Origin: an uncultured Candidatus Binatia bacterium | Lineage (GTDB): Bacteria; Desulfobacterota; Binatia; Bin18 | Reading direction: 5' to 3' | NCBI GenBank assembly: GCA_965242795.1 | Contig: OZ251505.1 | Location: 431,133-495,132, forward strand | Length of the DNA stretch: 64,000 nucleotides | Shown here: piece by piece, positions 6,218-54,450 of the stretch | How the letters are laid out: each line of letters begins with the position of its first letter | How positions within the stretch are numbered: the stretch's first letter is position 1 | The notes under the pieces: generated by a model | What the model was told of the DNA's origin: nothing | The model's input: the letters and a program-made list of their open reading frames with translations, nothing else | Databases searched by the model: none | Position numbers and translations under genes: made by a program

Positions 6218-6826
6218 TTAGAAGGCTTGATTCTCCTGAAGCCATTCGCCGACGATGGTCGTGTAGTCGTTGAAGATGAGTTCGCTCGGTTGCAGGCGCA
6301 ATTCGGCGCAGAGCCCCGGCAGCGTTCTTCTGAAGTGCCGATACCGTTTCCAGATGTGGGTTCCGCCGGGCACGTCGGCCTTCGTCTGGGAAGAGCGCAG
6401 CCATTGGCTTACGACCTGGACCGCTGTCTGCGGTGTGTTGTCGTGCGCCTTGATGTCCTGGCCCGAAATGTCGGAAATGAACTTCTGGTAGCGGTACCGG
6501 TCCCGATCCACGACGAGGACGTTTCTCTCGCCATCGTGCCGAGCGAGACCCAGGAACAACCCGAGCTCGAAAGGCATGTTGAACCGGGGAAGCCGATGGG
6601 CCGTATCGAGCCCGGTTCTGGAAATGTCGTGGTATCCGAACCGGCAATCGTCCATGATCTGAACGATCGTGTCCACGCGGACTTTTGCCGTGTTGATGAT
6701 TTCGAGCGTGGAGCGAGCCACGAATCCGCAGTCGAAGATGGCGAAGACGACCGCGTCGAAGATGGGCTTGTACGACCTATCGAAAGGACAATTGATGAAA
6801 ACGTTGGCGTTGTCTTCAGCGACCAT
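6218..6826 (-). CDS. Hypothetical protein with weak TIR/DUF4062/nucleoside-2-deoxyribosyltransferase-like features
   Basis: 202 aa. The N-terminal VFINCPFD strand resembles VFIS(S/Y) of TIR/DUF4062, and there is a later FELG motif. GC of the gene (~58%) is lower than its flanks. Confidence 0.45.
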   Translation of the reverse strand: MVAEDNANVFINCPFDRSYKPIFDAVVFAIFDCGFVARSTLEIINTAKVRVDTIVQIMDDCRFGYHDISRTGLDTAHRLPRFNMPFELGLFLGLARHDGERNVLVVDRDRYRYQKFISDISGQDIKAHDNTPQTAVQVVSQWLRSSQTKADVPGGTHIWKRYRHFRRTLPGLCAELRLQPSELIFNDYTTIVGEWLQENQAF

Positions 6827-10213: not shown

Positions 10214-11968
10214 CTACGACCGGCGCGCCTTCGCGTCGCCCGGGATACGGATGTCGTCAACGAGCGTCTGCACGTCCGCGGGCGGCGGCGCGGTCAGCCA
10301 CGAGAGGCCGAGCGCGACCGCGAAATTCAGCAGCATCCCGACCCCGCCGATGCCTTCCGGTGAAATACCCCACCACCAGTGCGCCGCGCTGTTCAGTTCC
10401 GGGGAAACGAATTTGAAATAGATGATGTAGGCGCCCGTAAATCCCAAACCGACCACCATGCCGGCAACCGCGCCCATGCAGTTCGTCCGCTTGGTGAAGA
10501 TGCCCAGCACGATGGCCGGAAAGAAACTCGACGCGGCCAAGCCGAACGCGAACGCCACGACCTGCGCGACGAAGCCGGGCGGATGGATGCCGAAATACCC
10601 GGCCACCAGCACCGCCACGCCCGCGGCCAGCCGCGCATAGCCCAACTCCTGCCGTTCGGTCAGGTCGGGGCGGATGACCTTCTTCATCAGATCGTGGGAG
10701 ATGGAGACGGACAGCACGAGGAGGAGACCCGCTGCGGTGGACAACGCCGCGGCCAACCCGCCGGCCGCCACCAGCGCGACCAGCCACGCCGGCAGCCGCG
10801 CGATTTCCGGGTTGGCCAACACGATGATGTCCCGGTCGATGTCCAGTTCGTTGCCTTGCCAGCCCCGCGCCGCGGCCTGTGCGGCGAACGCCGGGTTCCG
10901 GTCGTTGTAGTACTGAATGCGCCCGTCGCGATTCTTGTCCGAAAAGCGGATCAGCCCGGTCTCCTCCCATTTGGAGAACCACGCCGGCATGCCGGCGTAC
11001 TCGGCGCCGTGAACGGTCGTCAGGATGTTCGTGCGCGCGAACGCGGCGACCGCCGGCGCGCTGGCGTACAGGATGACGATGAACAGCAGCGCCCAGCCCG
11101 CGGACAGGCGCGCGTCGCGCACGTTGGGGACCGTGAAGAACCGGGTGATGACGTGCGGCAGGCCCGCGGTGCCGACCATCAGCGACAGGGTGATGAAGAA
11201 GACGTCGACGACCGTCTTGCTGCCGCGGCCGGTATAGGCCGCGAAGCCCAGTTCCCGGCTCAAGGCGTCGAGCTTGTCCAACAGCGCGACACCGGGCTCG
11301 GCCGACAGGTCTGCGCCGAACCCCATCTGCGGCAGCAACGTGTCGGTCATCATCAGCGAAATGAAGAAGATCGGCAGCATGTAGGCGAAGATCAGCACGC
11401 AATATTGGGCCACTTGGGTGTACGTGATGCCCTTCTGGCCGCCGGTCACCGCATAGACGAACACGAGCGCCATGCCGACCGCCACGCCCCACTCGACCGG
11501 CACTTCGAGGAACCGGGCGAACACCACCCCGACCCCGCGCATCTGTCCGGCAACGTAGGTGAACGACACGAAGATGGCACACACCAGGGCGACGACCCGC
11601 GCGGTCTGCGAATAATACCGCTCGCCCACGAAATCGGGCACCGTGTATTTGCCGAACTTGCGCAGATACGGCGCCAGCAGCAACGCCAGCAGCACGTAGC
11701 CGCCGGTCCAGCCCATCAGATACATGGCGCCGTCGCGGCCCAGCACCGACATCATGCCGGCCATCGAAATGAATGACGCCGCGCTCATCCAGCCGGCCGC
11801 GGTCGCCATGCCGTTGGCGAGCGCGCCGACCCGCGAGCCGGCCACGTAGAAATCCGCGGTCGATTCGGCCTTGGCGCGCCACGCGATGCCGATGTACAGC
11901 GCGAACGACAGACCGACGAGAACGAAGGTCCAGACTTTGACCGGGTCGGTCGGGAGCAGGTCGGTCAC
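10214..11968 (-). CDS. actP: Cation/acetate symporter ActP (sodium:solute symporter family)
   Basis: 584 aa with strong SSS/ActP similarity (YVAGSRVGALANGMATAAGWMSAASFISMAGM...GTAGLPHVITRFFTV...SHDLMKKVIRP). The GTG start overlaps the upstream stop as GTGA. Confidence 0.9.
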   Translation of the reverse strand: MTDLLPTDPVKVWTFVLVGLSFALYIGIAWRAKAESTADFYVAGSRVGALANGMATAAGWMSAASFISMAGMMSVLGRDGAMYLMGWTGGYVLLALLLAPYLRKFGKYTVPDFVGERYYSQTARVVALVCAIFVSFTYVAGQMRGVGVVFARFLEVPVEWGVAVGMALVFVYAVTGGQKGITYTQVAQYCVLIFAYMLPIFFISLMMTDTLLPQMGFGADLSAEPGVALLDKLDALSRELGFAAYTGRGSKTVVDVFFITLSLMVGTAGLPHVITRFFTVPNVRDARLSAGWALLFIVILYASAPAVAAFARTNILTTVHGAEYAGMPAWFSKWEETGLIRFSDKNRDGRIQYYNDRNPAFAAQAAARGWQGNELDIDRDIIVLANPEIARLPAWLVALVAAGGLAAALSTAAGLLLVLSVSISHDLMKKVIRPDLTERQELGYARLAAGVAVLVAGYFGIHPPGFVAQVVAFAFGLAASSFFPAIVLGIFTKRTNCMGAVAGMVVGLGFTGAYIIYFKFVSPELNSAAHWWWGISPEGIGGVGMLLNFAVALGLSWLTAPPPADVQTLVDDIRIPGDAKARRS

Positions 11969-12388: not shown

Positions 12389-14155
12389 ATGCTGCGCGAG
12401 TTGCAATTGGCGAACTTCAAGGCGTTCGGCGAGAAGGTGAGAATCCCGATTCGTCCGCTGACGCTCATCTTCGGCGCCAACTCCTCCGGCAAGAGTTCCG
12501 TCTTCCAGGCGTTGTTGCTCTTGAAGCAGACGCTGGAGGAGGCGCAGAGCCCAGAGACCCTCCTACTTTTCAAAGGCAATTTGGTGGACCTGGGAACGTA
12601 TAGAGACATCGTACACCGGCACGATGTCGATCTGAGTTTCGAGGTTGGAGTACAATTCGATAAAAAAAACTTCAAGGATGCAGATATAGAAAAAGACGTG
12701 TACGGGGAAGAATGGTCGCGAGCTTCTCCCCCGATCAGTCGAGTAAAGGGACCCGGATCGTTACCCAACGCACGAGAAATTCTCAATGATGCAGACGCAT
12801 TGAGTGCCGGCATGACGATCAAGTTTTTCGAAAATTCCGGCAAATCGGAGGTGAATGTCCATATCGGAAACGAATCTTTACCTCTGATTTCGTATGATGA
12901 CGGTTCTCCTTTCAAGATGCACATGAATTTCGATTCAAGATTCTGGCATCCCTGGTGGGGGTTGATGAAACATACGATTAAGGGAACCTTGCTCAAAGTG
13001 GCCCACTCCGTAGGTGTCAATGGAGAAGAAATATATCGATCCGACGGCACTGGCAAATACAAGACTCGGACGGAACTTGAGCGGCTTCTAGACAATTATG
13101 AATGGAAGGACGTGACAAGAGATCTCGAGCGGATGAAAAAATTCCGTTTCGCTAGTTCTTACCCGTCTCAGTTTAGGACTGTGAAGTCCGTCGAAAATGC
13201 CAAACTTTATATTCCTGCCATCATGTTTAACCGTGGACTACCTCCCCTAGAACACAGTCCCCTCAATGAAGACAGTCCCCTCAATTGGAAGATACGCACC
13301 CGGGCGGACTATTCCCGGCCTCCTGGTTCAGAATCCATATCTGCAATAGCAGACTCCTGGAACGTTGGGGAGGAGTTAGGTCGTTCCATCAATCAATTCA
13401 CGTCCGATGTAGGTTCTCTTTTTCATCGGAGCCTAAAAGAATCGGTATATCTCGGTCCTCTGAGGAGCCAACCCGAGCGTCATTACCTATTCAGAGGGGA
13501 TACGGCAGAACACGTCGAGCAAGCCGGAGAAAATCTTGCCGATCTTTTGTTCAAAATGTCACAAGATCGACAGGGCCATCTACAAAATGAACGTCTCGAT
13601 AAGATCAATGACGCCCTCAAGCTTCTCGGCATAAAATACGAACTCAGACTGTCAAGATTACAAAACGAGAATAAGACGCCAAGCAACATCTTCTCTCTGG
13701 TTCTCGTTGACCGCCAAGGGGTCGAAGCCAACGTCCGGGATGTCGGTTTTGGTATCAGCCAGGTGCTTCCCATTGTCGTACAGAGCAGACTTTCGGAGAA
13801 GCAGATGCTTTTGATCGAACAGCCCGAAATTCACCTGCACCCCGCCCATCAGGCCGAACTCGGCGACCTGTTCATCCGGTCCGCCCTCGGCGAACAACGC
13901 AATACCTTCTTGTTGGAGACACACAGCGAACACCTGATCCTCCGCATCCTGCGCCGTATCCGCGAAACGACGGAAAAGGGAAAGCCCTCGGACCCGGACG
14001 TCCCCCCGATCCGCCCGGAGGACGTGTCCGTTCTCTACGTGCAGCCGAGCAAGAACGGCGCCCGTGTCATCGAGATTCCGGTTACCGAAGACGGCGATTT
14101 CGCGCGCAACTGGCCGGGCGGCTTCTTCTCCGAGCGCGTCGAAGACCTGTTCTAG
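12389..14155 (+). CDS. ABC-type AAA ATPase (AAA_21/AAA_15-like, RecF/SbcC-like fold) with a DUF3696-like C-terminal domain; candidate defence-system ATPase
   Basis: Walker A GANSSGKSS in the first 35 aa; Walker B/D-loop LLIEQPEIHLHPAHQAELGDLF; H-loop LLETHSEHLI; a long inserted middle region; C-terminal ...YVQPSKNGARVIEIPVTEDGDFARNWPGGFFSERVEDLF. GC ~50% against a ~68% background. Confidence 0.85.
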   Translation: MLRELQLANFKAFGEKVRIPIRPLTLIFGANSSGKSSVFQALLLLKQTLEEAQSPETLLLFKGNLVDLGTYRDIVHRHDVDLSFEVGVQFDKKNFKDADIEKDVYGEEWSRASPPISRVKGPGSLPNAREILNDADALSAGMTIKFFENSGKSEVNVHIGNESLPLISYDDGSPFKMHMNFDSRFWHPWWGLMKHTIKGTLLKVAHSVGVNGEEIYRSDGTGKYKTRTELERLLDNYEWKDVTRDLERMKKFRFASSYPSQFRTVKSVENAKLYIPAIMFNRGLPPLEHSPLNEDSPLNWKIRTRADYSRPPGSESISAIADSWNVGEELGRSINQFTSDVGSLFHRSLKESVYLGPLRSQPERHYLFRGDTAEHVEQAGENLADLLFKMSQDRQGHLQNERLDKINDALKLLGIKYELRLSRLQNENKTPSNIFSLVLVDRQGVEANVRDVGFGISQVLPIVVQSRLSEKQMLLIEQPEIHLHPAHQAELGDLFIRSALGEQRNTFLLETHSEHLILRILRRIRETTEKGKPSDPDVPPIRPEDVSVLYVQPSKNGARVIEIPVTEDGDFARNWPGGFFSERVEDLF

Positions 14156-14157
14156 CC

Positions 14158-15096
14158 ATGATCCACGAATACGCGTTGGAACCCGAAGTCGTCGCCTCGT
14201 GGCATGACCGCGTCAAATTCCGGTTCTTCATCGACCAGTTCGGATGTGGAGCCGGACGGGTCGTCGGGATGTATCCGAGCAAAACGAATTGGAGAAAACA
14301 CGTTCGGGCGGCGTTGGATGCCGACTTTTCTCCAACCGACAAAGATCGAAAGAGAGTGGAGGAGATCGTCAAGAAACTCATTGCGTCCAAGGTGCAACGT
14401 GATGGGAGTGAATGGAACGGCACGCTTGATTGGCTCACCAACGCGGAAAGCGAACATCTCCGCAAACCCTTCCACGCCATTCTTGCCCGTGAGAACCCGC
14501 GCAATAACGAGACGGTCATGCGTGAAGCCGACGTCCTGGAAAGAGAAGCAGCCGGTTGGAATGCTCCACACTCGATAGTTGTCCGACGGAGTGCGGAGAA
14601 CATGGCGGAGTGCGTGGCACTGATGCTGCGTTGTGCAACCCGCGTACTCTTCGTCGATCCGTATTTCCGGGCCGACAAACCACGATTCAGAGAGCCACTA
14701 GCCGCGTTTCTTCGGCGGGTCAGCCCACAAGCCACGCTGGAAATTCATGCCTCAGCCTCTTACAAAAACGCTCCGAATGAGGAGCATTTCCGGAACGAAT
14801 CTGAACGCGACTTGCAGCGTCATTCCGTCATTCCAGACGGACGAGAACTCACGGTGTACCGTTGGCGAGACCGTACAGGCGGCGAAAAAATGCACAATCG
14901 TTACGTCTTGACCGACATCGGCGGCGTCGAATTCGGCGCCGGGCTGGATGAAGGGGAGGAGGGTACTAAAGACGATGTCAACCGCTTGGGCGCGGAGCCC
15001 TACGAAAAGCGGTATCAGGACTATGCCGGACCGTGCTTCTCCTTCGATCCTGATGGTGAGCCGTTCCGTGTTCCATCCAACCAGGAACGGACATAA
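14158..15096 (+). CDS. Hypothetical protein (312 aa), coupled partner of the AAA ATPase and possible effector
   Basis: Its start lies 2 nt after the ATPase stop, on the same strand and in the same AT-rich islet. No confident domain was found. It has a single H-x-R-x4-D-x6-G stretch (HNRYVLTDIGGVEFG) loosely reminiscent of a PLD/HKD motif. Confidence 0.6.
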   Translation: MIHEYALEPEVVASWHDRVKFRFFIDQFGCGAGRVVGMYPSKTNWRKHVRAALDADFSPTDKDRKRVEEIVKKLIASKVQRDGSEWNGTLDWLTNAESEHLRKPFHAILARENPRNNETVMREADVLEREAAGWNAPHSIVVRRSAENMAECVALMLRCATRVLFVDPYFRADKPRFREPLAAFLRRVSPQATLEIHASASYKNAPNEEHFRNESERDLQRHSVIPDGRELTVYRWRDRTGGEKMHNRYVLTDIGGVEFGAGLDEGEEGTKDDVNRLGAEPYEKRYQDYAGPCFSFDPDGEPFRVPSNQERT

Positions 15097-26034: not shown

Positions 26035-26853
26035 TCAGTCGATCCCCAAGCAGGCCAGGATCTGGTGGCGAACGTCTTGCTTGCTGGGCGCCAGCTTTGC
26101 GCGGAGCGCGGCCCGAAGATAGACGCGCAGATTGGGAATGCTGCGCAGCGCTGGCATCTCGAAACTCTGCAGCACCCGATGCAGGGTTTCGGATGTGCGC
26201 GATGGGAAGTGGTCGAGACTGCTGCGGACGATTTTCAAAAATAATCCGTGGTGGGCAAGTTCGTCATGGGCGATCCGGCGGAAACACTCGGACGCACCGA
26301 CTTCGTACCCTCGTTCGCTTTCTTCGGGCGTGGCCGCGGGAGGCAATCCGTACTCACGCCGAACCCGCGCGCGGACTCCCACATAGTGGAGATAGGTCGC
26401 CCACTCCTGCACCATCGAATACACGGTGGCGCCGAGCGGCGCTTCCAGACCGGCATGATCGTGTGCGTTCCAAGCGACATCGTGCGCGCGATTCAGATAC
26501 GCTCGGATCTGCGTCTCCGTGCGCACGCCGGAATGCTGCAATGCGAGTTCCAACGCGGCACCGTGGCGGGCCTCTTCCGCCCCCCACTGGAGTTGCAGGT
26601 TACGTCGGGTCCGATCGCGGTCGAACAGTTCGAGCCCGACTCGCGTATATTCCGCCACGTGTTCTTCCACGCTCAGGGAACCTTCGATCAAGGTGACCGT
26701 CTCCGTGCTCAGCCTGCCTCCGAGCGGCTCCATTTCTTCGAGAGGAAAATCGTGCCACGGGGACCAGTTCCGTGTCTTCATGGATTTCTGGAAAAACCGC
26801 ATGACATGCTCCGAAATTTCCTGCTCGAAGGTCGGCTGTCTCACCTCGGACAT
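26035..26853 (-). CDS. Acyl-ACP desaturase-like di-iron (ferritin-like) protein
   Basis: Two E-x-x-H di-iron motifs (EEARHG, DELAHH). Start at MSEVRQP, with an AAGGAGGAG RBS. Confidence 0.7.
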   Translation of the reverse strand: MSEVRQPTFEQEISEHVMRFFQKSMKTRNWSPWHDFPLEEMEPLGGRLSTETVTLIEGSLSVEEHVAEYTRVGLELFDRDRTRRNLQLQWGAEEARHGAALELALQHSGVRTETQIRAYLNRAHDVAWNAHDHAGLEAPLGATVYSMVQEWATYLHYVGVRARVRREYGLPPAATPEESERGYEVGASECFRRIAHDELAHHGLFLKIVRSSLDHFPSRTSETLHRVLQSFEMPALRSIPNLRVYLRAALRAKLAPSKQDVRHQILACLGID

Positions 26854-26954
26854 ACTCCTCCTTTTCCGTTGGACTTCCTCCCGCCAACGGTGTCGGGGAA
26901 GCGTCCACGGGAAGGAAAAGACCATCCCTTCCCGGTCTGCCGAATAAGGGAAAA

Positions 26955-28265
26955 TCAGAATGTGTAGCCCAGGTTACCGGTGACCGAATCGTAATCGCGC
27001 CCAAAGGTATAGGTCACACCCAACGAGAGCTTGTCCGTCAAGAATCCGAGGAAATCGACGGGTGATCCGACGCTCAGCGAAAGCTCGTGAAAGTGGTTCA
27101 AATACAAATCCGTCCCAGCCAGATAGGTGTGAGCGTACGAGGCGTCCACTTCCAGATTATGGTCTCCGAAGATTTTGAGACCGAGCGGGTGAGAGAACAT
27201 CACCCCGTTCTTGAACGCGGTATTTCGAATGTCCGGATTGAAGCTGTAATCTCCGATGGAGAGCTTCAACGTCTGATAGCGACCGATCATATTTCCCAGC
27301 ACGATCTTCGTTCGCTTGCTCAGTCCGAGGTTGCCCACCGGCAGGTGTTCCGCCAAGTTGTACTTGCTCGTCATAGAGCCGCCGATGATCTGGCCGACGG
27401 AGGCCGCGTCGTACGAGCCCGTCAGACCGTATGCTAGCGACGCCGTGACTGCCCAATTCCGCATGACCGGGACCGTCAGACCGGCTCCAGGGGCCACACT
27501 GTAAACGTCTGCGCCCTCGATGTCGACATAGGTCAGCGGAAGTTTGAACGTCAGTTTCGTGCCGGGCCAGCGGTCGAGTTTCAGGGTGTACTTGAGCGGA
27601 GCCGTCAGGCTCGTTCCACGAAACCCCCCGGCTTTGAAGCTCCCGCCATTGATCTGCAGACCGATTAAATTGGTCGTACCCTGTGTGCCCCCCGGGTCGT
27701 GAAGGGTCGTCCGGTCGGTAGCGAAGCCTCCGTCGTTGAAAGCGCTGTTGAGCAATGTCGATTGCAAGCTGTTCGGATTGCCGGCAATCGGGTCCACCGG
27801 AGAAACGCGCGCAAGTTCTTTTTGGATGCGGTCGAGAATGTTTGCCCCATCCTTCTCCAGAAAATCGACGAACTCATCAACGCTGTCGTCCCGCGTGGCA
27901 CCCATGAAGCTTTTATCGATGTTCAGTGATTCCACCTGGAAATGCAGAACGGTACTGTCCTTCTCGAATTGGGCGCGCATGTCCAATCCGCGGAAATTGA
28001 TGTCGCCGACAACCGCAAGGGAATCGTCGTAGGTAGGAAAGATAGCGTTCAGTGGGTCGCTCTCGGCAAAGCGCATTACGTCTTCGGCTCGGGAGAATCC
28101 GCGCACGTCGCTATCCATATATGCCGTTCCCTGGCCAATGACGACGTCGACGGTGAACAGATCTGCCCCCAAAGTCTCGGTTGGAGACACCGGCACTATG
28201 CAGAGCACCGTCAGTAAAAGGAGACCCGCCCAGCTTCTTCCCTTGTGCTTGCTGTTTTTCGACAT
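26955..28265 (-). CDS. Outer-membrane beta-barrel protein (hypothetical)
   Basis: Signal peptide MSKNSKHKGRSWAGLLLLTVLCIVPVSPTETLGA, alternating amphipathic beta pattern, C-terminal ...GNLGYTF aromatic terminus. GC is lower (~55%). Confidence 0.6.
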   Translation of the reverse strand: MSKNSKHKGRSWAGLLLLTVLCIVPVSPTETLGADLFTVDVVIGQGTAYMDSDVRGFSRAEDVMRFAESDPLNAIFPTYDDSLAVVGDINFRGLDMRAQFEKDSTVLHFQVESLNIDKSFMGATRDDSVDEFVDFLEKDGANILDRIQKELARVSPVDPIAGNPNSLQSTLLNSAFNDGGFATDRTTLHDPGGTQGTTNLIGLQINGGSFKAGGFRGTSLTAPLKYTLKLDRWPGTKLTFKLPLTYVDIEGADVYSVAPGAGLTVPVMRNWAVTASLAYGLTGSYDAASVGQIIGGSMTSKYNLAEHLPVGNLGLSKRTKIVLGNMIGRYQTLKLSIGDYSFNPDIRNTAFKNGVMFSHPLGLKIFGDHNLEVDASYAHTYLAGTDLYLNHFHELSLSVGSPVDFLGFLTDKLSLGVTYTFGRDYDSVTGNLGYTF

Positions 28266-28445
28266 ACCCCTTCCTTCCTCGTTGAAACAGGCTCCAGGAC
28301 GAGCCCATCTCGCGCCTGGATTCGAGAGACGAAGGGATTCTACGTCCAGCAAGCAGTATTTATCAAGTAATTTATGTCTGTCAAACGGTTTATTTATGAT
28401 TCGCGATTTCCCACACTGCGTCCACGTTCCGAGGCACTGCGTGAT

Positions 28446-28766
28446 ATGGAAGAGCGAAAACTGTTGGGGCGACGCATCAAAACCTTAAGAAAATCAAAGG
28501 GTTACACGCAAGAGCAGCTTGCCGAGATCATCCATGCGAACGTCAAATACCTTGCCGGGATTGAACGGGGAGAGGCGAATCCGACGATCTCGCTGCTCGA
28601 ACGAATCTCTTCGGGCCTGAATTTGCCGCTGTTCGAACTATTTCAATATGCCGAGACAGGGATGTCTCCGGCACAGCTTCGGGAAACGCTGGATCGACTT
28701 GTTGTCGAGGCGAAAGATGAAGACCTGCCCCGTTTGACCCGTATTTTCAGGGTCCTGGTCCGCTAA
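28446..28766 (+). CDS. XRE-family HTH transcriptional regulator (Cro/C1-type), divergent from the OMP gene
   Basis: LGRRIKTLRKSKGYTQEQLAEIIHANVKYLAGIERGEANPTISLLERISSGLNLPLFELF is a classic HTH_3. Confidence 0.75.
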   Translation: MEERKLLGRRIKTLRKSKGYTQEQLAEIIHANVKYLAGIERGEANPTISLLERISSGLNLPLFELFQYAETGMSPAQLRETLDRLVVEAKDEDLPRLTRIFRVLVR

Positions 28767-40442: not shown

Positions 40443-41677
40443 TGGGCGCCAAGCAGGCAGGCAATAGGGCCGACCGGTTCCGGCGGTGGTTCGGCGCAGC
40501 CGCGACATGGCTCATCTTGGCCGCGGGGGCGGGCGCCGAAGAACCGACCCTGTCGAAAAAGGTGTATGACCAGATCACCGGCGCCCAGACGTTGATGGAG
40601 CAGGAGCAGCACCCGCAGGCCGTGTCGCAATTGCGCGCGCTGCTGCAAGACGGCGACCTGAGCCCGTACGAGACCGCGATGCTCAACCAGACGCTCGGCT
40701 ATGCGTACGCGGCGCAGGAACGGTACGCCGAGTCGGCCGCGGCGTTCCGCAAAAGCCTCGACACCGGCGCGCTGCCGGAGGAGAGCGCGCAGATCGTCCG
40801 CTACAACATGGCGCAGATTCTGATCGCCGCGGAGCACTATGCGGACGGGGCCGCCATCCTCGAAGACTGGCTGGCCACGGGAACCGAAGCCGAGCCGCGC
40901 GCGCGGGTCCTGCTGGCCCAAGCCTATACCCAACTCGAGCAGTACGACCGGGCCGAACGGCATCTTTTGCAGGCGATCTCCCAGGCAACGACGTTCCAGG
41001 AGCCCTGGCACCGGCTGCTCGTCTCGACCTACGTCGAACAGGAAAAATTCTCCGAAGCCGCCGGGGTGTTACGGCGACTGCTGGGGCACTTTCCGGCAAA
41101 GAAGACCTACTGGATGCAACTCTCGCAGACGTACTCCGGGGCCGAACAGCACGAGCGGGCCGCGTCCACGCTGGCAATGGCGTACAAACAGGGGCTGCTG
41201 CGAGAACGCGAAGCCCTGCAAATCGTCAGCTACTATCTGCATCTCGGCCTGCCCTACAAAGCCGCGGAACTGCTGGCGGACGGGCTGACACGCGGCCTCA
41301 TCGAGGACTCCGACGAACACCAGGAATTGCTCGTCACCTGCTGGCTGCACGCCAGGGAGTATCAACGCGCCCTGGACGTCCTCGAACGGAAGGCCAAAAC
41401 CGCAGAGACGGGCGAGGCCGACATCAGACGCGCGGAAATCCTCGTCCAGTTGGAACGCTGGCCCGAGGCTGCGGCCAGCGCGTCATCAGGGATCGGCAAG
41501 GGCGGGATCGAGGAGCCGGGCAACGCCCATCTTCTGCTGGGCATTGCCGAATATCAGGCCGGCAAGCTGGACGAGAGCACCGAAGCGTTCAACACGGCGA
41601 CCTCCTACAAACCCGTCGCCAAACGGGCGCGGCAATGGCTGATGCTCCTGAAGCGGGAACAGGAGAAGCAACTCTAG
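40442..41677 (+). CDS. TPR-repeat protein (TtpD-like, last gene of the TonB2-type cluster)
   Basis: Multiple TPR-like A/Y/L-rich repeats and a signal peptide. The start overlaps the tonB stop. Confidence 0.7.
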   Translation: MGAKQAGNRADRFRRWFGAAATWLILAAGAGAEEPTLSKKVYDQITGAQTLMEQEQHPQAVSQLRALLQDGDLSPYETAMLNQTLGYAYAAQERYAESAAAFRKSLDTGALPEESAQIVRYNMAQILIAAEHYADGAAILEDWLATGTEAEPRARVLLAQAYTQLEQYDRAERHLLQAISQATTFQEPWHRLLVSTYVEQEKFSEAAGVLRRLLGHFPAKKTYWMQLSQTYSGAEQHERAASTLAMAYKQGLLREREALQIVSYYLHLGLPYKAAELLADGLTRGLIEDSDEHQELLVTCWLHAREYQRALDVLERKAKTAETGEADIRRAEILVQLERWPEAAASASSGIGKGGIEEPGNAHLLLGIAEYQAGKLDESTEAFNTATSYKPVAKRARQWLMLLKREQEKQL

Positions 41678-42217
41678 TCCCCCGCTCCTCCTCCCGACAC
41701 CCAATAAGACCCGAAGCAAAAACGGGGTGGGGCTCGATTCGAAATTTTCCCCCCTCCTCCGTCCGGACCCCCTGCCCCAGATCATGTCCGGGGCAGGCTC
41801 CAGCCCTTCCCCGGTGGTCCCTGAGCCTGTCGATGAGGGGATGAGGAAAAATGAACAGCAGGATCCTCTCCCCGGGAGAGATGTGTTGGGGTGAGAGTTC
41901 CCGCCCGCAGCAGAGATTTCCTCAAATGGAAAGAAACCTCTTCAAACCAAGATTAAGAACGGTACCGACCGACATTCCGCATTCAGAGTGAGGCGGTAGT
42001 CTATACCGCGCTGCCTGCCTGACCCAATCGTTGTTCGGAGATTCTCACCGCTGCCGGTCAGTTCATCGGCAATCCGGGTGCACACGACCTGGGAAAAGTC
42101 GAATCTCGACCGATCTCTCCGTTGATGGAGGCGTTTGGATGAATGCTGCTGGAACAGCGGATGGATGGATTGCGGCGTATTCGGCCTCATCGGAAACTCG
42201 CAACCAGGGGGGGGGTG

Positions 42218-44221
42218 ATGGCTAACCAGGAGTGGACGCGTTTGCCAGCACCGCCTCTCGTCCTGTTGTTCCTGGCACTGACGACGATGTTCCTCTTCGG
42301 GGGCGACCGAGGCTACTTATATCGGCCTGCCGGTGACGAGCACCTAACGTGGAATCACATGACGGTAGCCGAAAATTTGGCGCCGGAGCATTACTTCCTC
42401 GGCTTCTACAAGCGGATCCTGGACACCGACGGCACCCCCTCCTACGAGCCGTACAACCGCTTCCCCGTGGGCGGCCACATCTTGATCAAACTCGTCACGC
42501 TCCCCTTCTCCGACGACCTGTCGGCCCGGCTGTTCGCTGCAAGGATGTTGATGCTGACGTTCGCTACCGCCGCCGCAACACTCGCCTACCTCGCCTTGTG
42601 CCGGCTGGTGGGCAACCGCTGGACGGCGCTGACGGCCACCCTGCTGGCGTTCTCCTCGTACTACGCTCTCTACTACAACGACATGGTCGCCACGGAGGGA
42701 GTCGTCGACCTGTTCGGCGTCCTGCTGGTCTTTCACGGCATGGCGGTGGCCGCCACCGAGAACCGACACGGGCAACTGCTGGCGAAGACGTGCGTGGCCC
42801 TGCTGCTGGGGTGGCACGTCTATGCGATCATAGGACCTTTCGTGCTGTTCGGGCTGGTGGCCGCATGGCGCCGCCGGGAGGGAGAGGCTATCCGGCGCCA
42901 TGTGAAGTTGGGAATAGTTGCCGTGCTGTTCGGTTCAATGGTCCTTTCCGTCAATTTTATGAGAGAGTCCATTGCACTGGACGTTAAGGTGTCAGCGGCG
43001 GAAGAATTGCCTTCCACGAGGTCAATGCTGCGCCGCATCGGTATATTACGGTTCTCTGGTATGCCTAGGTTCAACTGGCTGAAGGAGGCCAGACAAGGGT
43101 TAGAGGATATCGGTCGTGCGTCGGTCCCTTACGCCCTCAGTTACTTCATCGGCGACGACATTTGCGGCCTGGACGATTCTGTCGGCAGGAAGACGTATCG
43201 CATACTTGGCATCGTCGTCGTTCTGTCCGTCCTGCTTCTCCTGTTTTCACCTGCCACTCGCTACCGGGTCCCACTGGCGGCGCTCGTCGTGTCCCGACCT
43301 TGTTGGCTAGTCGTCGTGCCCTACAACTATGAGCTGGCATTCGAAAGGTTGTTCTACGTTGGCCTCCTGCTTGTGCTGTTCACACTGACGCTGACACACC
43401 TCGATCGCTTGGGCCGAGGGAGGGGGAATGTCTCGGTACTCGCAGGCGTCGCCTCGGTACCGATATTCGCATTGTCGAGTCTTCTCATGGCTGGGATCAA
43501 CCAGGACCCCGAACGCGCCACACGGGAAAGGACTTTGACCGCCGACATCGAATCTATCCGCAAATTAGCGAAAGGGAAAACGATCTTCCTCGGGGAGAAT
43601 AACGCGACGAAGCTTTGGTACTACCGTCAAAAGTTCTACTTCACGGACAGCATCTTCGTGTCCTCCGCCCACAGACACCTTGCCGACTTCATCGTGGCGG
43701 AACGGTTCGCGGGCGTCCGCTCCCTGACCCCCGACAACCGATTGGTGTTCCTCTACGAGACCGCCGACTATGCCGCCGGTATGGCCGCCGCCTTGATTTC
43801 GTACAAGCAGTCCGTGAGGCATAACACCCCGGTCGTACAATCCTCTGACTACGCCGTTTACTTTATCAAAGGGGAACGGAACCAGGGAAATAAACTGCTT
43901 TACCTCCGCGCCGACTGCCCGGCGACGCTGTTCCAGCAGCCCTGGGCGCGCTTCTTCCTACACGTGATTCCCGTGGACCCGACCGACCTTCATAAAGACA
44001 GAGAACAACGGTACGGGTTCGCCAATCTGGACTTCACTATCAACTGGTATTGGCCCGTAGAAGGCGAGTGCTACGTCGTGCGGCGTTTGCCGGGTTACGG
44101 AATCGCTGAGATCCGCACCGGACAGTTCAGAGGACGCAAAGGTGGGTATGAAACACTCTGGGGGGGGCGCTTCTCACCGGCAGCGGACGGGGATCAGCGT
44201 TCTTCACGACCTGCACCTTGA
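42218..44221 (+). CDS. Large polytopic membrane protein, possibly a GT-C-fold glycosyltransferase (ArnT/PMT-like)
   Basis: >10 predicted TM helices, a DE dipeptide after TM1 (RPAGDEHLTW) and a long C-terminal soluble domain. GC is lower (~58%). GGGGGGGTG RBS. Confidence 0.5.
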   Translation: MANQEWTRLPAPPLVLLFLALTTMFLFGGDRGYLYRPAGDEHLTWNHMTVAENLAPEHYFLGFYKRILDTDGTPSYEPYNRFPVGGHILIKLVTLPFSDDLSARLFAARMLMLTFATAAATLAYLALCRLVGNRWTALTATLLAFSSYYALYYNDMVATEGVVDLFGVLLVFHGMAVAATENRHGQLLAKTCVALLLGWHVYAIIGPFVLFGLVAAWRRREGEAIRRHVKLGIVAVLFGSMVLSVNFMRESIALDVKVSAAEELPSTRSMLRRIGILRFSGMPRFNWLKEARQGLEDIGRASVPYALSYFIGDDICGLDDSVGRKTYRILGIVVVLSVLLLLFSPATRYRVPLAALVVSRPCWLVVVPYNYELAFERLFYVGLLLVLFTLTLTHLDRLGRGRGNVSVLAGVASVPIFALSSLLMAGINQDPERATRERTLTADIESIRKLAKGKTIFLGENNATKLWYYRQKFYFTDSIFVSSAHRHLADFIVAERFAGVRSLTPDNRLVFLYETADYAAGMAAALISYKQSVRHNTPVVQSSDYAVYFIKGERNQGNKLLYLRADCPATLFQQPWARFFLHVIPVDPTDLHKDREQRYGFANLDFTINWYWPVEGECYVVRRLPGYGIAEIRTGQFRGRKGGYETLWGGRFSPAADGDQRSSRPAP

Positions 44222-44504
44222 GCATTCTTTCCCGGCTCCGAATGCCGCGTGACAAGCGATTAACGGCTCGACTACCCTCAGCCTCCAGCCATCAAGAGCA
44301 AAGATGTTAGGGGCTGCGATGACTTCTATTCCTGAAGCGGGAGTGGGAGCACTCCGGCTCCAGCTTGCCGTTACGCCCATCTGAAACGGCATATCGGCTC
44401 GTCTTTTCTTCTTTCCGATGCAGAGGGGAATGCACAAATCATCCTTATACTTCTCCTCTTTTTTCTTCTCTCCTCGGAAGAGACAAGAAGCGTCGGGGAG
44501 ACAT

Positions 44505-44881
44505 TCAACCCGCCGTCCCGGCGGCGTCTGAATCTTGGGACGCCAGTTCGATGAGGTCGGCGGCGGCCATCTCGTCGAGCAAGACCCCCACGTCGTGCAG
44601 ACAGGTTTCCTCGTCGACCTCGAACTCCTCGCACAACGCCTTCGTCAGTGCGCCCACCGTCTCCAGGCACCCCCCTCGTCGATGAGTCGCCACGTTACGA
44701 TGCCGGTCTCCTTCAGGCCGTAGAACCGGCCCTCCCCGACATCCATGAAGACCAGTTCGCCGTCCACCTCCGCGTCGACGAACTTGTCGATGGTGCGCCG
44801 CGCGCGGGTCGTTGAGCATGGCGACGCTCTGCCCAACCTCTCCGTGGCCGGCGTAGTGTACCCTGGAGACCGCCACATCAA
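44505..44881 (-). pseudogene. PqqD-like (RiPP recognition element) gene disrupted by a frameshift
   Basis: N-terminal half DGELVFMDVGEGRFYGLKETGIVTWRLIDEGG (frame of 44645-44881) and C-terminal half LTKALCEEFEVDEETCLHDVGVLLDEMAAADLIEL (frame of 44505-45191) lie in different frames. Confidence 0.5.
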
Positions 44882-45260
44882 GCGGATTACGCACGAGGTA
44901 GCTGGCGCCGACGGTCACGTCGTCGGGAAACAGTGGCTCCGCGGCCCCGTTGCCGAGGAATGCGTCGTAGATGCGGCAGAACAGCGCCCTGCCGGCAGGC
45001 GCGGGCTGCGCCGCGTGTGCCCGGTACACGGCCGGGCGCAGCAGGTCGGCTTCTGCGTCCGTACAACACCCCGACGGAACGTCCGTCCAATCGTCGAATT
45101 CGCTCCAACCGTACAAACCGGAGCCGATACGCGCACTCACCTCGCCGAAGGAAACGGCGGCGTCCGCGTCGGTCAGAAAATTCGCGAGCAACGTGCGCAG
45201 CCAGGAGTTGCCGGAGCGCGGCTACGAGGCCAGCCACACGATACGCCGCCGGCCGGTCGT
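44790..45260 (-). pseudogene. Sulfotransferase-family gene remnant with an in-frame TAG and 3' truncation
   Basis: Minus-strand translation reads RRRIVWLAS*PRSGNSWLRTLLANFL... (5'-PSB loop with an amber codon where Tyr is expected) ...SYLVRNPLDVAVS (3'-PB motif). It then runs into unrelated sequence and the PqqD fragment. Confidence 0.5.
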
Positions 45261-45659
45261 CGGGCGGGCTGCAGCGGCTCCCCCGCCCGGCGACGTTCGG
45301 GCATCACGCATCCTCAGATGGGGTTGCACAATATCCTGATCCGCCCTTCCCGACAGGATCTCGCGCTCCGGAAGTACGGTCCGATGCTGTAGACGCGGAT
45401 ACGCTCGACCAGGCGCGTGTGGCGGGCGAACTCTGGATGGATGGGACTGCGTGGGCACAAGGCCCGGTGGTCGTTGCCGCGACCGAAGACCCGGCGGGGC
45501 CGCGGGGGCAGGAAAGGCCGTATGCGAGAGGGCGCAGTAGTCCGAGCCGTCCCGATGTCGCCTCGCGCCATAACGTCGGCCATCAGCTCGTCAAGTTCAG
45601 TCGGGTGGATCTCAATAGAACCCACTGCCATTCCCCGGCGATATTGGTGAATATACCGG

Positions 45660-46721
45660 CTAGGACACGGACAGTTCCATCTCACCGACGAACCTGCTGA
45701 CCGGCACGCCTTTCGTCAAGACTAGGACGACACGTCCCTGGCCCTGGTGAACGCGACGTAGAAGAACCTGCGCTCTGCCTTGATGTCGCGTGGCGTCTCG
45801 GCGCGTTTGTACCACCACATTCTCGTTGACGTCGAGCAGGATGACCGTGTCGAACTCCTTGCCCTTGGCCCGTGTCGCCGTCATGAGGTGGAGTGGCCTG
45901 TCTTTGCAATCTCGTCGCCTTCGTCGCCAAACCCATGGTAGTGCGCAGACTGTTCTTGGCGTCGTCGAGTCGCTCAATCAGATCGTCGGCCGACATCCCT
46001 TCGCTTTCCGCCATGTCGGCCAGTTACTTGAGCGGTGGGTCCGCGAACCAGACGTCATCCTCGGCTTTCTCGAAGTCGAATCTCAGGCCGGAAAATCCAT
46101 CCGAGATCGATCTGACGGCCCCGGCCACGGTGTCGGCCATGATGAAGTCGCCTGCCGCGTTCGCTAACTGGGCTGGCGTCTTGCCGCTGAGCTTCGGTCC
46201 ACTATACGAGGCCATTCTACACACCGCATCCGTCGTCGTCTTCGCGCCGAGAGCCTAGAAGTATTTGCTGACGCTCGCTTCGTCTTTTCTGCTGAAGGGG
46301 AAACGCTTCACGCGGCTGAGCACCTCCATCGCATCGTTGAGGGCGCGCGGCGACCGCTGACGCTCGTCCCGGCGCTCCCAGACCTCGATCAGCGCCATCA
46401 AATGACTGAAAGCCTCAGCAGACTGGGTTGTCGGACCTCGCTTCGGAGGCGGCGGTAACTGTAGGCATTGAGCGTACGCACTGTCACAGAGTCCCACAGG
46501 GGATCGAAATCGCGGTCAACCGCGAGGCGAGATTCAGCTTCTAGTTCAGCGGCCTTCGTGAAAGTGACGAGGAGGAACCATTCGTTGTGCGCCGCCTGCT
46601 CGGCCAGATGGAGGCAACGGTAGAGAAGAGCGTTGGTCTTGCCGCAGCTCGCCGGGGCGAGGACACGGACGTGGCGGGCGTCGGATTCGCAGAACCTTCG
46701 TTGCGATTCGTCGAGTTTCAT
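45660..46721 (-). pseudogene. UvrD/Rep-like SF1 helicase gene, internally deleted and split across 4 or more frames
   Basis: N-terminal piece LDESQRRF...VLAPASCGKTNALLYR...LLVTFTKAAELE (Walker A and motif Ia) at 46398-46721; C-terminal piece MTATRAKGKEFDTVILLD (motif VI-like) at 45660-45977; intervening short ORFs. The ~1.06 kb total is too short for an intact helicase. Confidence 0.5.
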
Positions 46722-46914
46722 GCGGCATGTTCTCCTAATCGATTCCGTTGGCGCTCGGGGTGGACGTCGTGGTTCAGGGGCTGGGCATAGCGCAGGAAAG
46801 CGCCGGAGTAGTTAGGACCGGCCGACCATCAAAGCCTCCCAAGAGTCGAAAGTCCGTGTGGTGTTACAGTCGAAACTTCCCCGTTAGATCTGCTTCTTCG
46901 GATCACTTCCGGGA

Positions 46915-47306
46915 TGGCCCCACCCCGCTCCTACCGAGGGGAAAATGGGAAGAAGAAGCCGGTGGGGAGGAGGGCAAAGCGATTCTTTCCCGTCCGCCCT
47001 TTCTTGATATTTTCTCCCCTGCATAATGCAGAGATGGGATTTCGCGCTCCGGGGAATTTTCAACATACGCGGGGACAGGACGCGACATGGGCCTGGAGGA
47101 AAATATCGACCGACTCGAAGACCTGAACCGCCAATCGCTCCAAGGTGGCGGGGATACCCGCATCGCGCGTCAGCACGAATTGGGCAAGAAGACCGCTGGC
47201 GAGCGGGTCAGGGCGTTTATGGACCCGGGCGACTTCATGGAACTGGACCGGCTCAAGACCCACCGCTGTAGCGACTTCGACATGGCCGAGACGAAAATCC
47301 CGGGCG
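46915..47306 (+). repeat. Direct repeat DR-L: diverged copy of the promoter and first ~73 codons of the acyl-CoA carboxylase beta gene (contains truncated ORF 47087-47306)
   Basis: Aligns with 48745-49146. Identity is ~85% over most of the length but 68/69 in the last ~70 bp before the junction at 47306. Confidence 0.8.
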
Positions 47307-47397: not shown

Positions 47398-48603
47398 ATG
47401 GAATGGCCTGACGTCGAGCGGCGCATCGCCGCCGGAGAAGACGCCCGTACCGAGTTCAAACGCGGGAGCGGCGACTTGCGGGGCATCGGCAAGTCGCTCT
47501 GTGCGTTTGCGAATGGCGATGGCGGCCTGATCGTGATCGGCGTTGACGACGCCACCAGGACAGTAGTCGGAATGGACGCAGACCCCGAGGCGGTGCAGGA
47601 ACAGTTGACGAGCCTGCTGTATACCGGCTGCGGCAAGCCGGTCACTGCACAGTGTGGACGGCACGACACCGGCTCCGGGTGGGTCCATTGGATCGACGTA
47701 CATCGCCATCAACGGGGCTACGAGCCATTCGCGTATGGCGGCCGGTTCTGGGTTCGGCGTGGTCGGGCGACGGTCGCGCCGTCTCCGTCCGAGCTGCAGG
47801 AGTTGATGAATGCCTTCGGGTTCGTCCTCACCGAGCAACAGGTCGTGTCGTCGGCGACCGTTGATGACATCGACTTCGGCGCCGTGCGAACCTTCATGCA
47901 GGCGCAGGGGATGGAGACCGATCTGGAGCCGCAACCAACGCACGAGGCCGATTTGCGCAGCGCCAGTATCGTCGACGAACTCGACGGCGTCCTTCGCCCC
48001 ACGCTGTACGGGCTGATGGTGTTCGGGCGCGACCCGCAGGCGTTCCCGCAGACCGGAAGCCTGTTCGTGCAATGCGCCGCGTATGCCGGCGCCGACCAGG
48101 CGTCCGACGTGCTGAGTGCAGGAGAGGGAAAGGGACGCCTGGAAGATCAGGTGCATCGGGCGATGGGATGGTTCCGCAGCTTGGGCCGACGCGAGGTCTA
48201 TCACGGGCTCTATCGCCGGGACGTTCCACCGCTGCCGGAGGTCGCGCTGCGCGAAGCCCTCGTCAACGCGGTCATCCATCGGGATTACGCCGTTACCGGA
48301 TCCCAAGTCCTGCTGGAGGCGTTCGACGACCGTATCGTGGTGACCAGCCCCGGCACCTTACCCAACCACATGACGGTCGAGCAGGCACGGATGGGCGGCG
48401 CGCCGCGGTCCCGCAATGAGATGATGGCGAACGCGCTGGTCGGGCGCGGACTCATGGAGCGGCGCGGGCGGGGCTGGCTGACGATGCGCCACGCCATGCG
48501 ACGCTTCAACGGAACCGAACCGACGCTGACCAACGACGAGCGCAACCGATTCGTGCGAGTGACGTTCCGTCTGGAGCCGGATTCACCCGGGAACGGTGCG
48601 TGA
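47398..48603 (+). CDS. Schlafen/AlbA_2-like DNA-binding domain plus HATPase_c_4 (divergent ATPase) protein; sole gene of the insert between DR-L and DR-R
   Basis: N-terminal EDARTEFKRGSGDLRGIGKSLCAFANGDGGLIVIGVDD (AlbA_2/Schlafen box). C-terminal EALVNAVIHRDYAVTGSQVLLEAFDDRIVVTSPGTL (HATPase_c_4 signature). GGGAGGGA RBS. Confidence 0.7.
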   Translation: MEWPDVERRIAAGEDARTEFKRGSGDLRGIGKSLCAFANGDGGLIVIGVDDATRTVVGMDADPEAVQEQLTSLLYTGCGKPVTAQCGRHDTGSGWVHWIDVHRHQRGYEPFAYGGRFWVRRGRATVAPSPSELQELMNAFGFVLTEQQVVSSATVDDIDFGAVRTFMQAQGMETDLEPQPTHEADLRSASIVDELDGVLRPTLYGLMVFGRDPQAFPQTGSLFVQCAAYAGADQASDVLSAGEGKGRLEDQVHRAMGWFRSLGRREVYHGLYRRDVPPLPEVALREALVNAVIHRDYAVTGSQVLLEAFDDRIVVTSPGTLPNHMTVEQARMGGAPRSRNEMMANALVGRGLMERRGRGWLTMRHAMRRFNGTEPTLTNDERNRFVRVTFRLEPDSPGNGA

Positions 48604-48744
48604 GCCGGAGAAAAGACGATTCCTCACCCTCCCGGCTGAAAGACATGCGGTCCCTCCATCCCTCATCGTGGGAGTTCGTTTCACGGAGCACCCGTCGCGA
48701 CACCCTTCGGCAGGCTCGGGGACCTGTCTCAATGGGCTGATCCC

Positions 48745-49146
48745 CCACCCTATCGGCCGGTCCCATTGCGAGCCGCGGGAAGGGGGAAGAATGGCAAGAA
48801 CCTAAGATAGAGACTGGCACACCGCGTCCTTCCCGCCCCTTTCTTGATATTTTCTCCCCTGCGTAATACAAAGCCGGGATTCCGCACTCCGGGGAATTCT
48901 CAGCACGTGTGGGGACAGGACACGACATGGGCCTGAAGGAGAACATCGACCGACTCGAAAGCCTGAACCGCCAAGCGCTCCAAGGCGGCGGGGAAGCCCG
49001 CGTCGCGCGGCAGCACGAACTGGGCAAGAAGACCGCGCGCGAGCGGGTCGAGGCGTTTCTGGACCCCGGCAGCTTCGTGGAACTGGACCGGCTCAAGACC
49101 CACCGCTGTACCGACTTCGACATGGCCGAGACGAAAATCCCGGGCG
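48745..49146 (+). repeat. Direct repeat DR-R (promoter and 5' end of the intact carboxyltransferase gene)
   Basis: Partner of DR-L. The near-identical ~70 bp core GTGGAACTGGACCGGCTCAAGACCCACCGCTGTACCGACTTCGACATGGCCGAGACGAAAATCCCGGGCG ends at 49146. Confidence 0.8.
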
Positions 49147-54364: not shown

Positions 54365-54450
54365 GGGGCCTTTTCGACACCCTTCGACAGGATCGGGGAC
54401 CGAACTCAACAGGCTGGACCCTGAGCTTGTCGGAAAGGTTTTGACCAGAG
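54365..54450. repeat. Repeat family A copy (TTCGACACCCTTCGACAGGATC ... CTGAGCTTGTCGGAAAGG)
   Basis: Shares the TTCGACAGG and GAGCTTGTCGAAAGG modules with the other copies. Confidence 0.55.

Follow-up and report, generated by a model that had tools for sequence, protein, structure and literature searches.

A 2.2-kb zone at positions 44505-46721 of a 64,000-nucleotide (nt) stretch of DNA from an uncultured Candidatus Binatia bacterium (contig OZ251505.1, positions 431,133 to 495,132 of the forward strand; the whole stretch is called the window below) carries the relics of four genes on its minus strand, namely a sulfotransferase, a PqqD-like gene, a lasso cyclase and a UvrD-like helicase. This zone is very probably the non-functional 3' remnant of a kinase- and sulfotransferase-tailored lasso-type cluster for a peptide that is synthesized by the ribosome and modified after translation (RiPP), abutted by the remnant of a UvrD-like helicase of mobile or defence type. 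An earlier note, made from the sequence letters, had described local gene decay here, and all strings quoted in it were recovered at their coordinates on the minus strand from a listing of open reading frames (ORFs) and a three-frame minus-strand translation of 44300-46900.

Lesions in the four relics

For comparison, relatives were found by protein search with the sulfotransferase fragment (83-99% identity). They come from one metagenome set, with records PANK22-1_SAMN1229... and Logan assemblies SRR182492xx, and comprise the loci L081/L082, L083, L084/L085, L086/L087, L088/L089 and L092. The disabling lesions were mapped against L083, other relatives and the intact sister locus L093, and were reproduced in L092, an independent Logan assembly (SRR18249240) that is 99.7% identical to window positions 47272-43246. 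All 12 differences between the two lie outside 46811-44526, with none inside, and L092 carries the same amber codon, so the lesions are not assembly errors. The remainder of the window is openly coding, with long unbroken ORFs of 782, 805, 841, 657, 612 and 536 amino acids (aa) among others, and the decay is therefore local. Thus, as the earlier note had maintained, this is genuine local pseudogenisation, and the sequence here is trustworthy.

The sulfotransferase relic (44797-45316, minus strand) was delimited by tblastn and corresponds to residues 13-188 of its 345-aa orthologue, sulfotransferase 2 of L093, to which it is 86% identical (E = 6e-93). Its 5'-phosphosulfate-binding (PSB) loop reads VWLAS-TAG-PRSGNSW, and the in-frame TAG reported earlier was confirmed at 45222-45224. 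Tyrosine had been expected at this position, which the relatives contradict: the orthologues in L083, L084 and L086 have TGG (Trp), and one TGG to TAG transition accounts for the lesion. The RNPLDVAVS motif is retained about 110 codons downstream of the stop, and the sulfotransferase likeness ends about 25 codons later, which agrees with the truncation already described. PF00685, a profile of about 255 positions, matches over profile positions 4-30 only (E = 3.8e-6). With its PSB loop broken by a stop and its sequence cut near residue 188 of 345, the relic is not a complete 3'-phosphoadenosine-5'-phosphosulfate (PAPS)-dependent sulfotransferase, although RNPLDVAVS is kept.

The sulfotransferase is joined to the PqqD-like gene by a deletion of 396 nt, whose junction at 44797-44812 (minus strand) was recognised from a 16-nt overlap of the matches to L083 and L093. 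This deletion removed the C-terminal half of the sulfotransferase and the first 11 or so PqqD codons, and the resulting fusion is out of frame. Comparison of the junctions showed that it ends within two near-identical 16-nt direct repeats, ACGACC(A/C)GCG(C/T)GCGGC, and that it is common to the window, L092 and L088, the last of which stems from another sample. The PqqD-like pseudogene, a RiPP recognition element (RRE, B1), occupies 44505-44816 on the minus strand with its stop codon at 44505-44507, and the match to its orthologue starts at residue 5, blurred by the 16-nt repeat. DNA alignment with the intact copies of L083, L081 and L086 revealed that one C is missing between 44662 and 44661, which places the two halves in different frames, as had been noticed before: the full PF05402 profile (positions 1-67 of 67, E = 4.8e-15, 56 bits) was matched only on joining 44812-44669 and 44720-44508. 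Against the NCBIfam model lasso_PqqD_Bac (NF033536) the relic scored 44 bits, with a cut-off of 80. The ORF list also contains a chimeric ORF of 228 aa with a TTG start (44505-45191, minus strand), and an identical protein, P0001, was called on L092. It consists of the sulfotransferase sequence after the PSB loop, the PqqD N-terminal half out of frame and the PqqD C-terminal half in frame; it was created by the lesions and is probably accidental.

Between the helicase and sulfotransferase relics lies a remnant of an asparagine-synthase-like lasso cyclase gene (45320-45580, minus strand), which corresponds to L093 nt 11212-11479 and was found by blastn (82% identity to L093, 87% to L083) and by tblastn with the 650-aa cyclase. 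Residues 437-493 can be read at 45490-45320 (57 aa, 81% identity, tblastn E = 2e-24), and the cyclase of L090 is matched more weakly. The gene has lost about 1.2 kb at its 5' end and about 507 nt at its 3' end; the 3' deletion has a junction homology of 2-4 nt and is also present in L084 and L086. With roughly residues 437-493 of 650 left, this is not a lactam synthetase (C), and a B2 transglutaminase-like cysteine protease was not found among the ORFs and Pfam matches of the zone. The earlier note had overlooked the cyclase remnant, while its reading of the sulfotransferase and PqqD genes as the remnant of a RiPP or lasso cluster is upheld by the intact orthologous cluster at the same site in L093.

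The helicase relic begins with an N-terminal fragment, a 107-aa ORF at 46398-46721 (minus strand; PF00580 positions 1-95 of 271, E = 1.3e-9), which covers helicase residues 1-102, is 52% identical to residues 1-102 of the homologue P0046 and includes motif I (APASCGKT) and motif Ia (LLVTFTKAAELE). An internal deletion follows, with its junction at 46416-46422 (minus strand): tblastn with P0046 matched 46721-46416 to its residues 1-102 and 46422-45943 to its residues 432-591. Residues ~103-431 (about 990 nt), including motifs II-IV, are absent, and the frame shifts at the junction. The C-terminal half (2B region, motifs V and VI) is spread over three frames at 45660-46422 (minus strand), as established by tblastn with P0045, P0046 and P0054 and by alignment with L088, L084, L086 and L081. 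The homologues used (P0046, P0045, P0051 and P0054) share 45-50% identity with the query where they align. Two stop codons have arisen, TAG at 46255-46257 (CAG in the relatives) and TAA at 46024-46026 (CAA in the relatives), together with two 1-nt deletions, one near 45943 and one near 45740, and a deletion of 2 nt near 45820, which L086 has as well. The pieces TATRAKGKEFDTVILLD and RRFFYVAFTRARD occur in different frames around 45.7-45.9 kb, where UvrD_C is matched with E = 1e-3 to 4e-4. We take TATRAKGKEFDTVILLD, quoted before as the TATRAKGKEFD piece, to be motif V of superfamily 1 (SF1) helicases, with RRFFYVAFTRA in another frame as the equivalent of motif VI; by the UvrD/PcrA motifs, the former label of motif VI for this piece has to be changed to motif V. 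Otherwise the description of a fragmented UvrD helicase stands as regards the Walker A motif, motif Ia and the several frames, while the loss of the central third (Walker B, motifs II-IV) had not been recognised.

Motifs I, Ia, V and VI thus remain recognisable, as in the UvrD, PcrA and Rep SF1 helicases including GajB. The UvrD homologues have complete UvrD N- and C-terminal domains and measure about 580-610 aa as called, probably about 700 aa at full length, whereas the window copy lacks some 330 central residues, has motifs V and VI in two different frames, contains two stop codons and has no GajA partner, and it is not a UvrD/SF1 helicase any more. Among the database homologues (P0042, P0045, P0051 and P0054), several were called without a Walker A N-terminus and one, P0042, lacks the central region. 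In L094 (6666-8773) the N-terminal part is found upstream in another frame, and the Walker A part of P0051 is placed just upstream in this way. In metagenome assemblies, members of this helicase family seem to be often disrupted or miscalled.

The intact cluster at the sister locus

The near full-length asparagine-synthase-like gene that L083 has upstream of its sulfotransferase was used, with its frames corrected, as a query and led to P0159, a protein of 650 aa with 80% identity. The 90% cluster of P0159 has 24 members, and all 15 listed are 650 aa long. P0159 is encoded on a 4.13-Mb contig (ERZ25068400 ctg22264; locus L093) that is syntenic with the window, and its cluster lies between the PCC carboxyltransferase and the TPR/TonB genes, the same chromosomal site as the decayed zone. 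The comparison with close relatives that had been proposed to find an intact cluster thus succeeded at the syntenic site. The gene order of L093 is PCC, AlbA_2, PCC 5' duplicate, JmjC_2 oxygenase, HprK-like kinase, sulfotransferase 1, a 57-aa ORF, cyclase, sulfotransferase 2, PqqD, two membrane-protein paralogues, TPR and TonB. The JmjC_2 match scores 91 bits, and the kinase (308 aa) has HprK_rel_A as its best NCBIfam match (40 bits, cut-off 200). Both sulfotransferases (302 aa and 345 aa) span the full PF00685 profile, the cyclase matches NF033535, the NCBIfam model of the lasso isopeptide cyclase, best (172 bits, cut-off 525), and the PqqD protein (107 aa) is matched best by lasso PqqD models.

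The 57-aa ORF (L093 9809-9982; L083 2-196) encodes MITTPPPPPPPRKPWAPPRLETVEVESVWQGHETNPGDADSPSGNTLIDPNLSCPSS. Its conservation in L083 amounts to 78% over 45 aa (E = 1e-22), and at both loci it ends 18 nt ahead of the cyclase start. The two peptides share the pattern RKPW(A/V)PPRLE...VW(Q/V)-GH(E/D)xNPGD..., with Gly1 and Asp8, and combine a WxxPxL motif with a proline-rich N-terminus in L093 and a serine-rich C-terminus whose final residue is Ser. We take the WxxPxL motif to be spaced like the YxxPxL leader motif that is recognised by lasso RREs. Judged from its sequence, this conserved short ORF upstream of the cyclase is plausibly the precursor peptide. In the intact cluster, the PqqD RRE would bind the WxxPxL leader motif, the cyclase would close a Gly1-Asp8 lactam ring, and the core, which is rich in Ser, Thr and Asp, would be decorated by the kinase, both sulfotransferases and the JmjC enzyme. 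No homologue of the 57-aa peptide was found in the window by tblastn.

Relative to L093, the window lacks the cluster from the JmjC gene up to roughly cyclase codon 400, a part that takes up about 4.8 kb in L093. The helicase relic (46721-45660) stands where this part is missing, right after the PCC 5' duplicate, and no helicase remnants were found in L093. We interpret the window helicase as a passenger gene, now decayed, of a mobile or defence island.

A review describes lasso clusters that contain HPr-kinase homologues and putative sulfotransferases, and lists the sulfotransferase as putative only (PMC8498205). With these clusters, both of the paeninodin type and related proteobacterial ones with HPr-kinase-like and sulfotransferase or nucleotidyltransferase tailoring (PMC8498205), the loci described here share a split-B PqqD-like RRE and an asparagine-synthase-like cyclase whose best NCBIfam match is a lasso cyclase model, and L093 in addition shares an HprK-like kinase, sulfotransferases, and a short peptide gene right before the cyclase with a YxxPxL-like leader motif, Gly1 and Asp8. 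They differ in that the window keeps a 57-codon piece of the cyclase, half a sulfotransferase and a frameshifted RRE, with no precursor, while the L093 locus shows neither a B2 transglutaminase-like protease nor an ABC exporter, and its lasso-specific hidden Markov model scores are below the trusted cut-offs. L093 moreover possesses two sulfotransferases and a JmjC oxygenase, and a description of such a combination was not found. A second known system, HPr-rel-A (TIGR04352, HprK-related kinase A; TIGR04353, PqqD_rel_X), resembles the cluster in the best match of the L093 kinase and in a weak PqqD_rel_X match (22 bits for the L093 PqqD, 17 bits for the window copy). The kinase and PqqD scores do not reach the respective cut-offs of 200 and 35, PqqD is matched better by the lasso PqqD models, and the kinase gene is gone from the window.

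Erosion, selection and alternative explanations

The related contigs share the neighbourhood of the window, with TPR, TonB, ExbD and ExbB on one side and PCC carboxyltransferase, biotin carboxylase and ThyX on the other. Between these same core genes, the six related loci differ by independent deletions, fusions and gene losses, which agrees with the view of an accessory region in flux put forward before. In L081, the sequence between window 46134 in the helicase and window 45222 in the sulfotransferase has been deleted across TGGCCG microhomology, and L088 has a deletion from 45763 to 45222 plus one of 79 nt. The PqqD gene of L088 carries a different 1-nt deletion, about 12 nt upstream of that in the window. 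In L084, a single ORF of 582 aa begins in the helicase and continues into the sulfotransferase, and there is a sulfotransferase-PqqD deletion as well. The sulfotransferase of L086 is frameshifted, and L083 has a cyclase with at least four frameshifts and a sulfotransferase with two. The helicases of L084, L081 and L086 keep residues 1-35 and 348 onward, which represents a second, independent internal deletion. Intact sulfotransferase was found in none of the sampled strains of the window lineage, and PqqD is intact in three (L083, L081 and L086). The right-hand endpoints of the two independent large deletions in L081 (9919) and L088 (4017) fall within about 3 nt of each other at the TAG codon of the window (~45222), which may reflect a deletion hotspot in a GGCC-rich stretch or coincidence.

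The most economical sequence of events suggested by these loci would begin with an intact cluster such as that of L093. Inactivation, represented by the stage of L083, and loss of the 5' half along with the presence of a helicase gene would have come next, followed by two alternative internal helicase deletions in two sub-lineages, more strain-specific deletions and finally the point lesions private to the window strain, which are three nonsense codons and small indels. With the precursor and cyclase lost, or inactive as in L083, the tailoring genes would have had no substrate and would have drifted neutrally, being erased through the usual deletion bias of bacteria. The helicase would have come by horizontal transfer and then decayed too. 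With bacterial pseudogenes and other decaying biosynthetic clusters the zone has in common several independent lesions, strain-specific deletions (some at short direct repeats), a raised ratio of non-synonymous to synonymous substitution rates (dN/dS) and an intact orthologue in a sister lineage, with no essential difference.

We estimated dN/dS by the Nei-Gojobori method between the window and its relatives. The values were 0.04-0.09 for PCC, 0.11-0.25 for TPR and 0.28-0.49 for the membrane protein gene next to the zone, as against 0.37-0.61 for the sulfotransferase piece, 0.25-1.2 for the helicase pieces (0.85 for the helicase N-terminus versus L088) and ~0.2-2 for the PqqD halves, which have few substitutions. 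The raised values of the relics, several-fold above those of the neighbouring core genes, fit relaxed constraint, though weakly when taken alone.

Several points weigh against our interpretation. The dN/dS values of the relics are mostly below 1 and come from short segments, which makes them a weak test alone, and the intact membrane gene has raised values as well. The cyclase and PqqD score under the NCBIfam trusted cut-offs of the lasso-specific models, and a B2 leader peptidase is not among the called genes of the 22-kb L093 locus (precomputed Pfam), for which reason the cluster is named lasso-type rather than proven lasso. The order of events may also run two ways, with the helicase inserted by replacement or ancestral and lost from L093, and a regulatory or small-protein role of a leftover ORF is formally possible.

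Among the alternatives, one holds that the genes are otherwise intact and that the stops and frameshifts stem from errors of sequencing or assembly; this is extremely unlikely. Metagenome assemblies can carry indel errors, and L094, a long-read contig from an unrelated organism, shows a possible helicase frameshift, but the independent short-read assembly L092 reproduces every lesion without a single difference from 46811 to 44526, the 396-nt deletion is common to L088, the main lesions are deletions of 0.4-1 kb and a cluster loss of about 4.8 kb rather than homopolymer slips, and the other long genes of the window are all open. Equally, the TAG lies in frame within the conserved PAPS-binding loop, which might suggest an amber codon decoded by a suppressor tRNA, as pyrrolysine or by programmed read-through, and thus a functional recoded sulfotransferase. 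We give this explanation next to no credence: TGG in the orthologues points to a plain one-step nonsense mutation, orthologue residues 189-345 would be missing even with read-through, and two more new stops (TAG and TAA) occur in the adjoining helicase relic. Moreover, tRNA and Rfam scans of the window gave a single tRNA-Phe and neither a suppressor tRNA, as had been observed before, nor any other Rfam match.

It is likewise very unlikely that the lesions made a new, selected product, either the 228-aa sulfotransferase-PqqD chimera or the 107-aa Walker A protein. Gene calls exist for both ORFs, which do not differ between the window and L092, and a 107-aa N-terminal helicase ORF occurs in L088 too. 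As L092 represents a nearly identical strain, this agreement is uninformative on selection; the chimera begins past the PAPS loop and consists in part of about 45 out-of-frame residues and half an RRE, the region has different frameshifts and the extra 79-nt deletion in L088, and the dN/dS of the helicase N-terminus against L088 speaks against the 107-aa product. A working or recent Gabija-like anti-phage system, formed by the helicase and the neighbouring AlbA_2/Schlafen-like gene in a defence island rather than a biosynthetic relic, is highly improbable too. PADLOC gave GajB-type UvrD models as the best matches of the helicase, for its C-terminal part only and at no more than 68 bits, the AlbA_2 protein matches models associated with prokaryotic Argonaute (pAgo), and the intact helicase homologue P0051 adjoins a HEPN/RES protein and a large serine recombinase, not GajA. 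The helicase lacks motifs II-IV and is broken by stops and frameshifts, no GajA/OLD nuclease gene or GajA-like ORF adjoins it (ORF list, Pfam), and L093 has the AlbA_2 gene but no helicase. The Gabija reading of the helicase was rejected since GajA is missing. A past defence role of the helicase is compatible with a decayed lasso-type cluster next to a helicase remnant, whereas a present role is not.

Flanking features and significance of the decay

On one side, the zone is flanked by a gene for a multi-pass membrane protein of 692 aa (42143-44221, plus strand) for which Pfam, NCBIfam and PADLOC gave no match. The gene is intact in L081, L083, L084, L088 and the window and duplicated in L093, and it is apparently absent from L086, an ambiguous result as the L086 contig ends in repeated sequence. 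The window protein is 62-66% identical to the two tandem paralogues of L093, compared with about 90% (DNA) for the flanking core genes. A 40-nt copy of the TPR 3' end (41626-41665) recurs downstream of the membrane gene at 44310-44349 (73%, weak), which hints that this gene is also bracketed by a duplicated flank. An exact-protein look-up of the window membrane protein and PCC gave no match, probably owing to differing start codons, and a search of genome contigs with PCC found no close relative (best 87% on a 6-kb contig, others about 70%), which shows that the lineage is poorly sampled.

On the other side, the zone is bounded by a displaced second copy of the region upstream of the PCC carboxyltransferase gene and of its first 73 codons (46993-47306, plus strand; 86-88% identity to 48837-49146), whose boundary at 46997 is the same in L093. 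The direct copies at 46997-47296 and 48837-49136 (300 nt, 88% identity) bracket 47398-48603, an intact AlbA_2/Schlafen and HATPase_c_4 gene of 401 aa, in the same arrangement as in L093. This AlbA_2 block has the appearance of an old insertion by which the 5' end of its target gene was carried along or duplicated. The AlbA_2 gene was lost from L081, L084 and L086 via a deletion from 48798 to 47144. L093 also contains, at 13445-13702 between PqqD and the first membrane gene, a 258-nt fragment with 83% identity to the AlbA_2 interior (window 47835-47578), which is a further relic in an otherwise intact lineage.

A repeat search over 41-50 kb detected the PCC 5' duplication and the one weak 40-nt repeat only, with no inverted repeats of the insertion sequence type and no tandem arrays, and with the exception of one 42-nt match no intergenic segment of the zone is a dispersed repeat. 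A dispersed intergenic repeat (about 40-70 nt, 76-95%) occurs in the window at 48698-48739, 54375-54416, ~406-442 and 555-621, also beside the PCC gene, and in L093 at 4811-4875 and 6546-6606. It may be an element of the REP (repetitive extragenic palindromic) or MITE (miniature inverted-repeat transposable element) kind. The window stretches 12600-15000 and 26200-28500 have a lower G+C content (0.51-0.60, versus about 0.66 elsewhere) and contain ORFs without a Pfam match (e.g. 26958-28484, 509 aa) or few long ORFs; these are possibly further accessory or decayed regions.

Based on these results, pseudogenes are the appropriate annotation for the 44.5-46.7 kb region, rather than a biosynthetic cluster, a helicase or a recoded gene. 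The decay of an accessory cluster into pseudogenes is an ordinary phenomenon, and the six loci together with the intact sister locus provide an unusually clear view of the stepwise erosion of an unselected cluster in an uncultured lineage, by large deletions, some at short repeats, and then by nonsense mutations and small indels, with lesions that differ per strain. The intact cluster of the L093 type is the sole part with some discovery potential. To our knowledge, sulfation of a lasso peptide has not been demonstrated to date, and L093, with its kinase, two sulfotransferases, JmjC enzyme, cyclase and RRE, is an uncharacterised lead for sulfated lasso-type peptides. We tentatively suggest, as a possibility rather than an expectation, that it might make an undescribed, heavily tailored lasso-like peptide, whose novelty would lie in the two sulfotransferases, the HprK-like kinase, the JmjC enzyme, the WxxPxL leader, the Gly1-Asp8 pair and the apparent lack of a linked B2 protease. 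The window lineage might then form a natural knock-out series, in which the product would be dispensable in its habitat.

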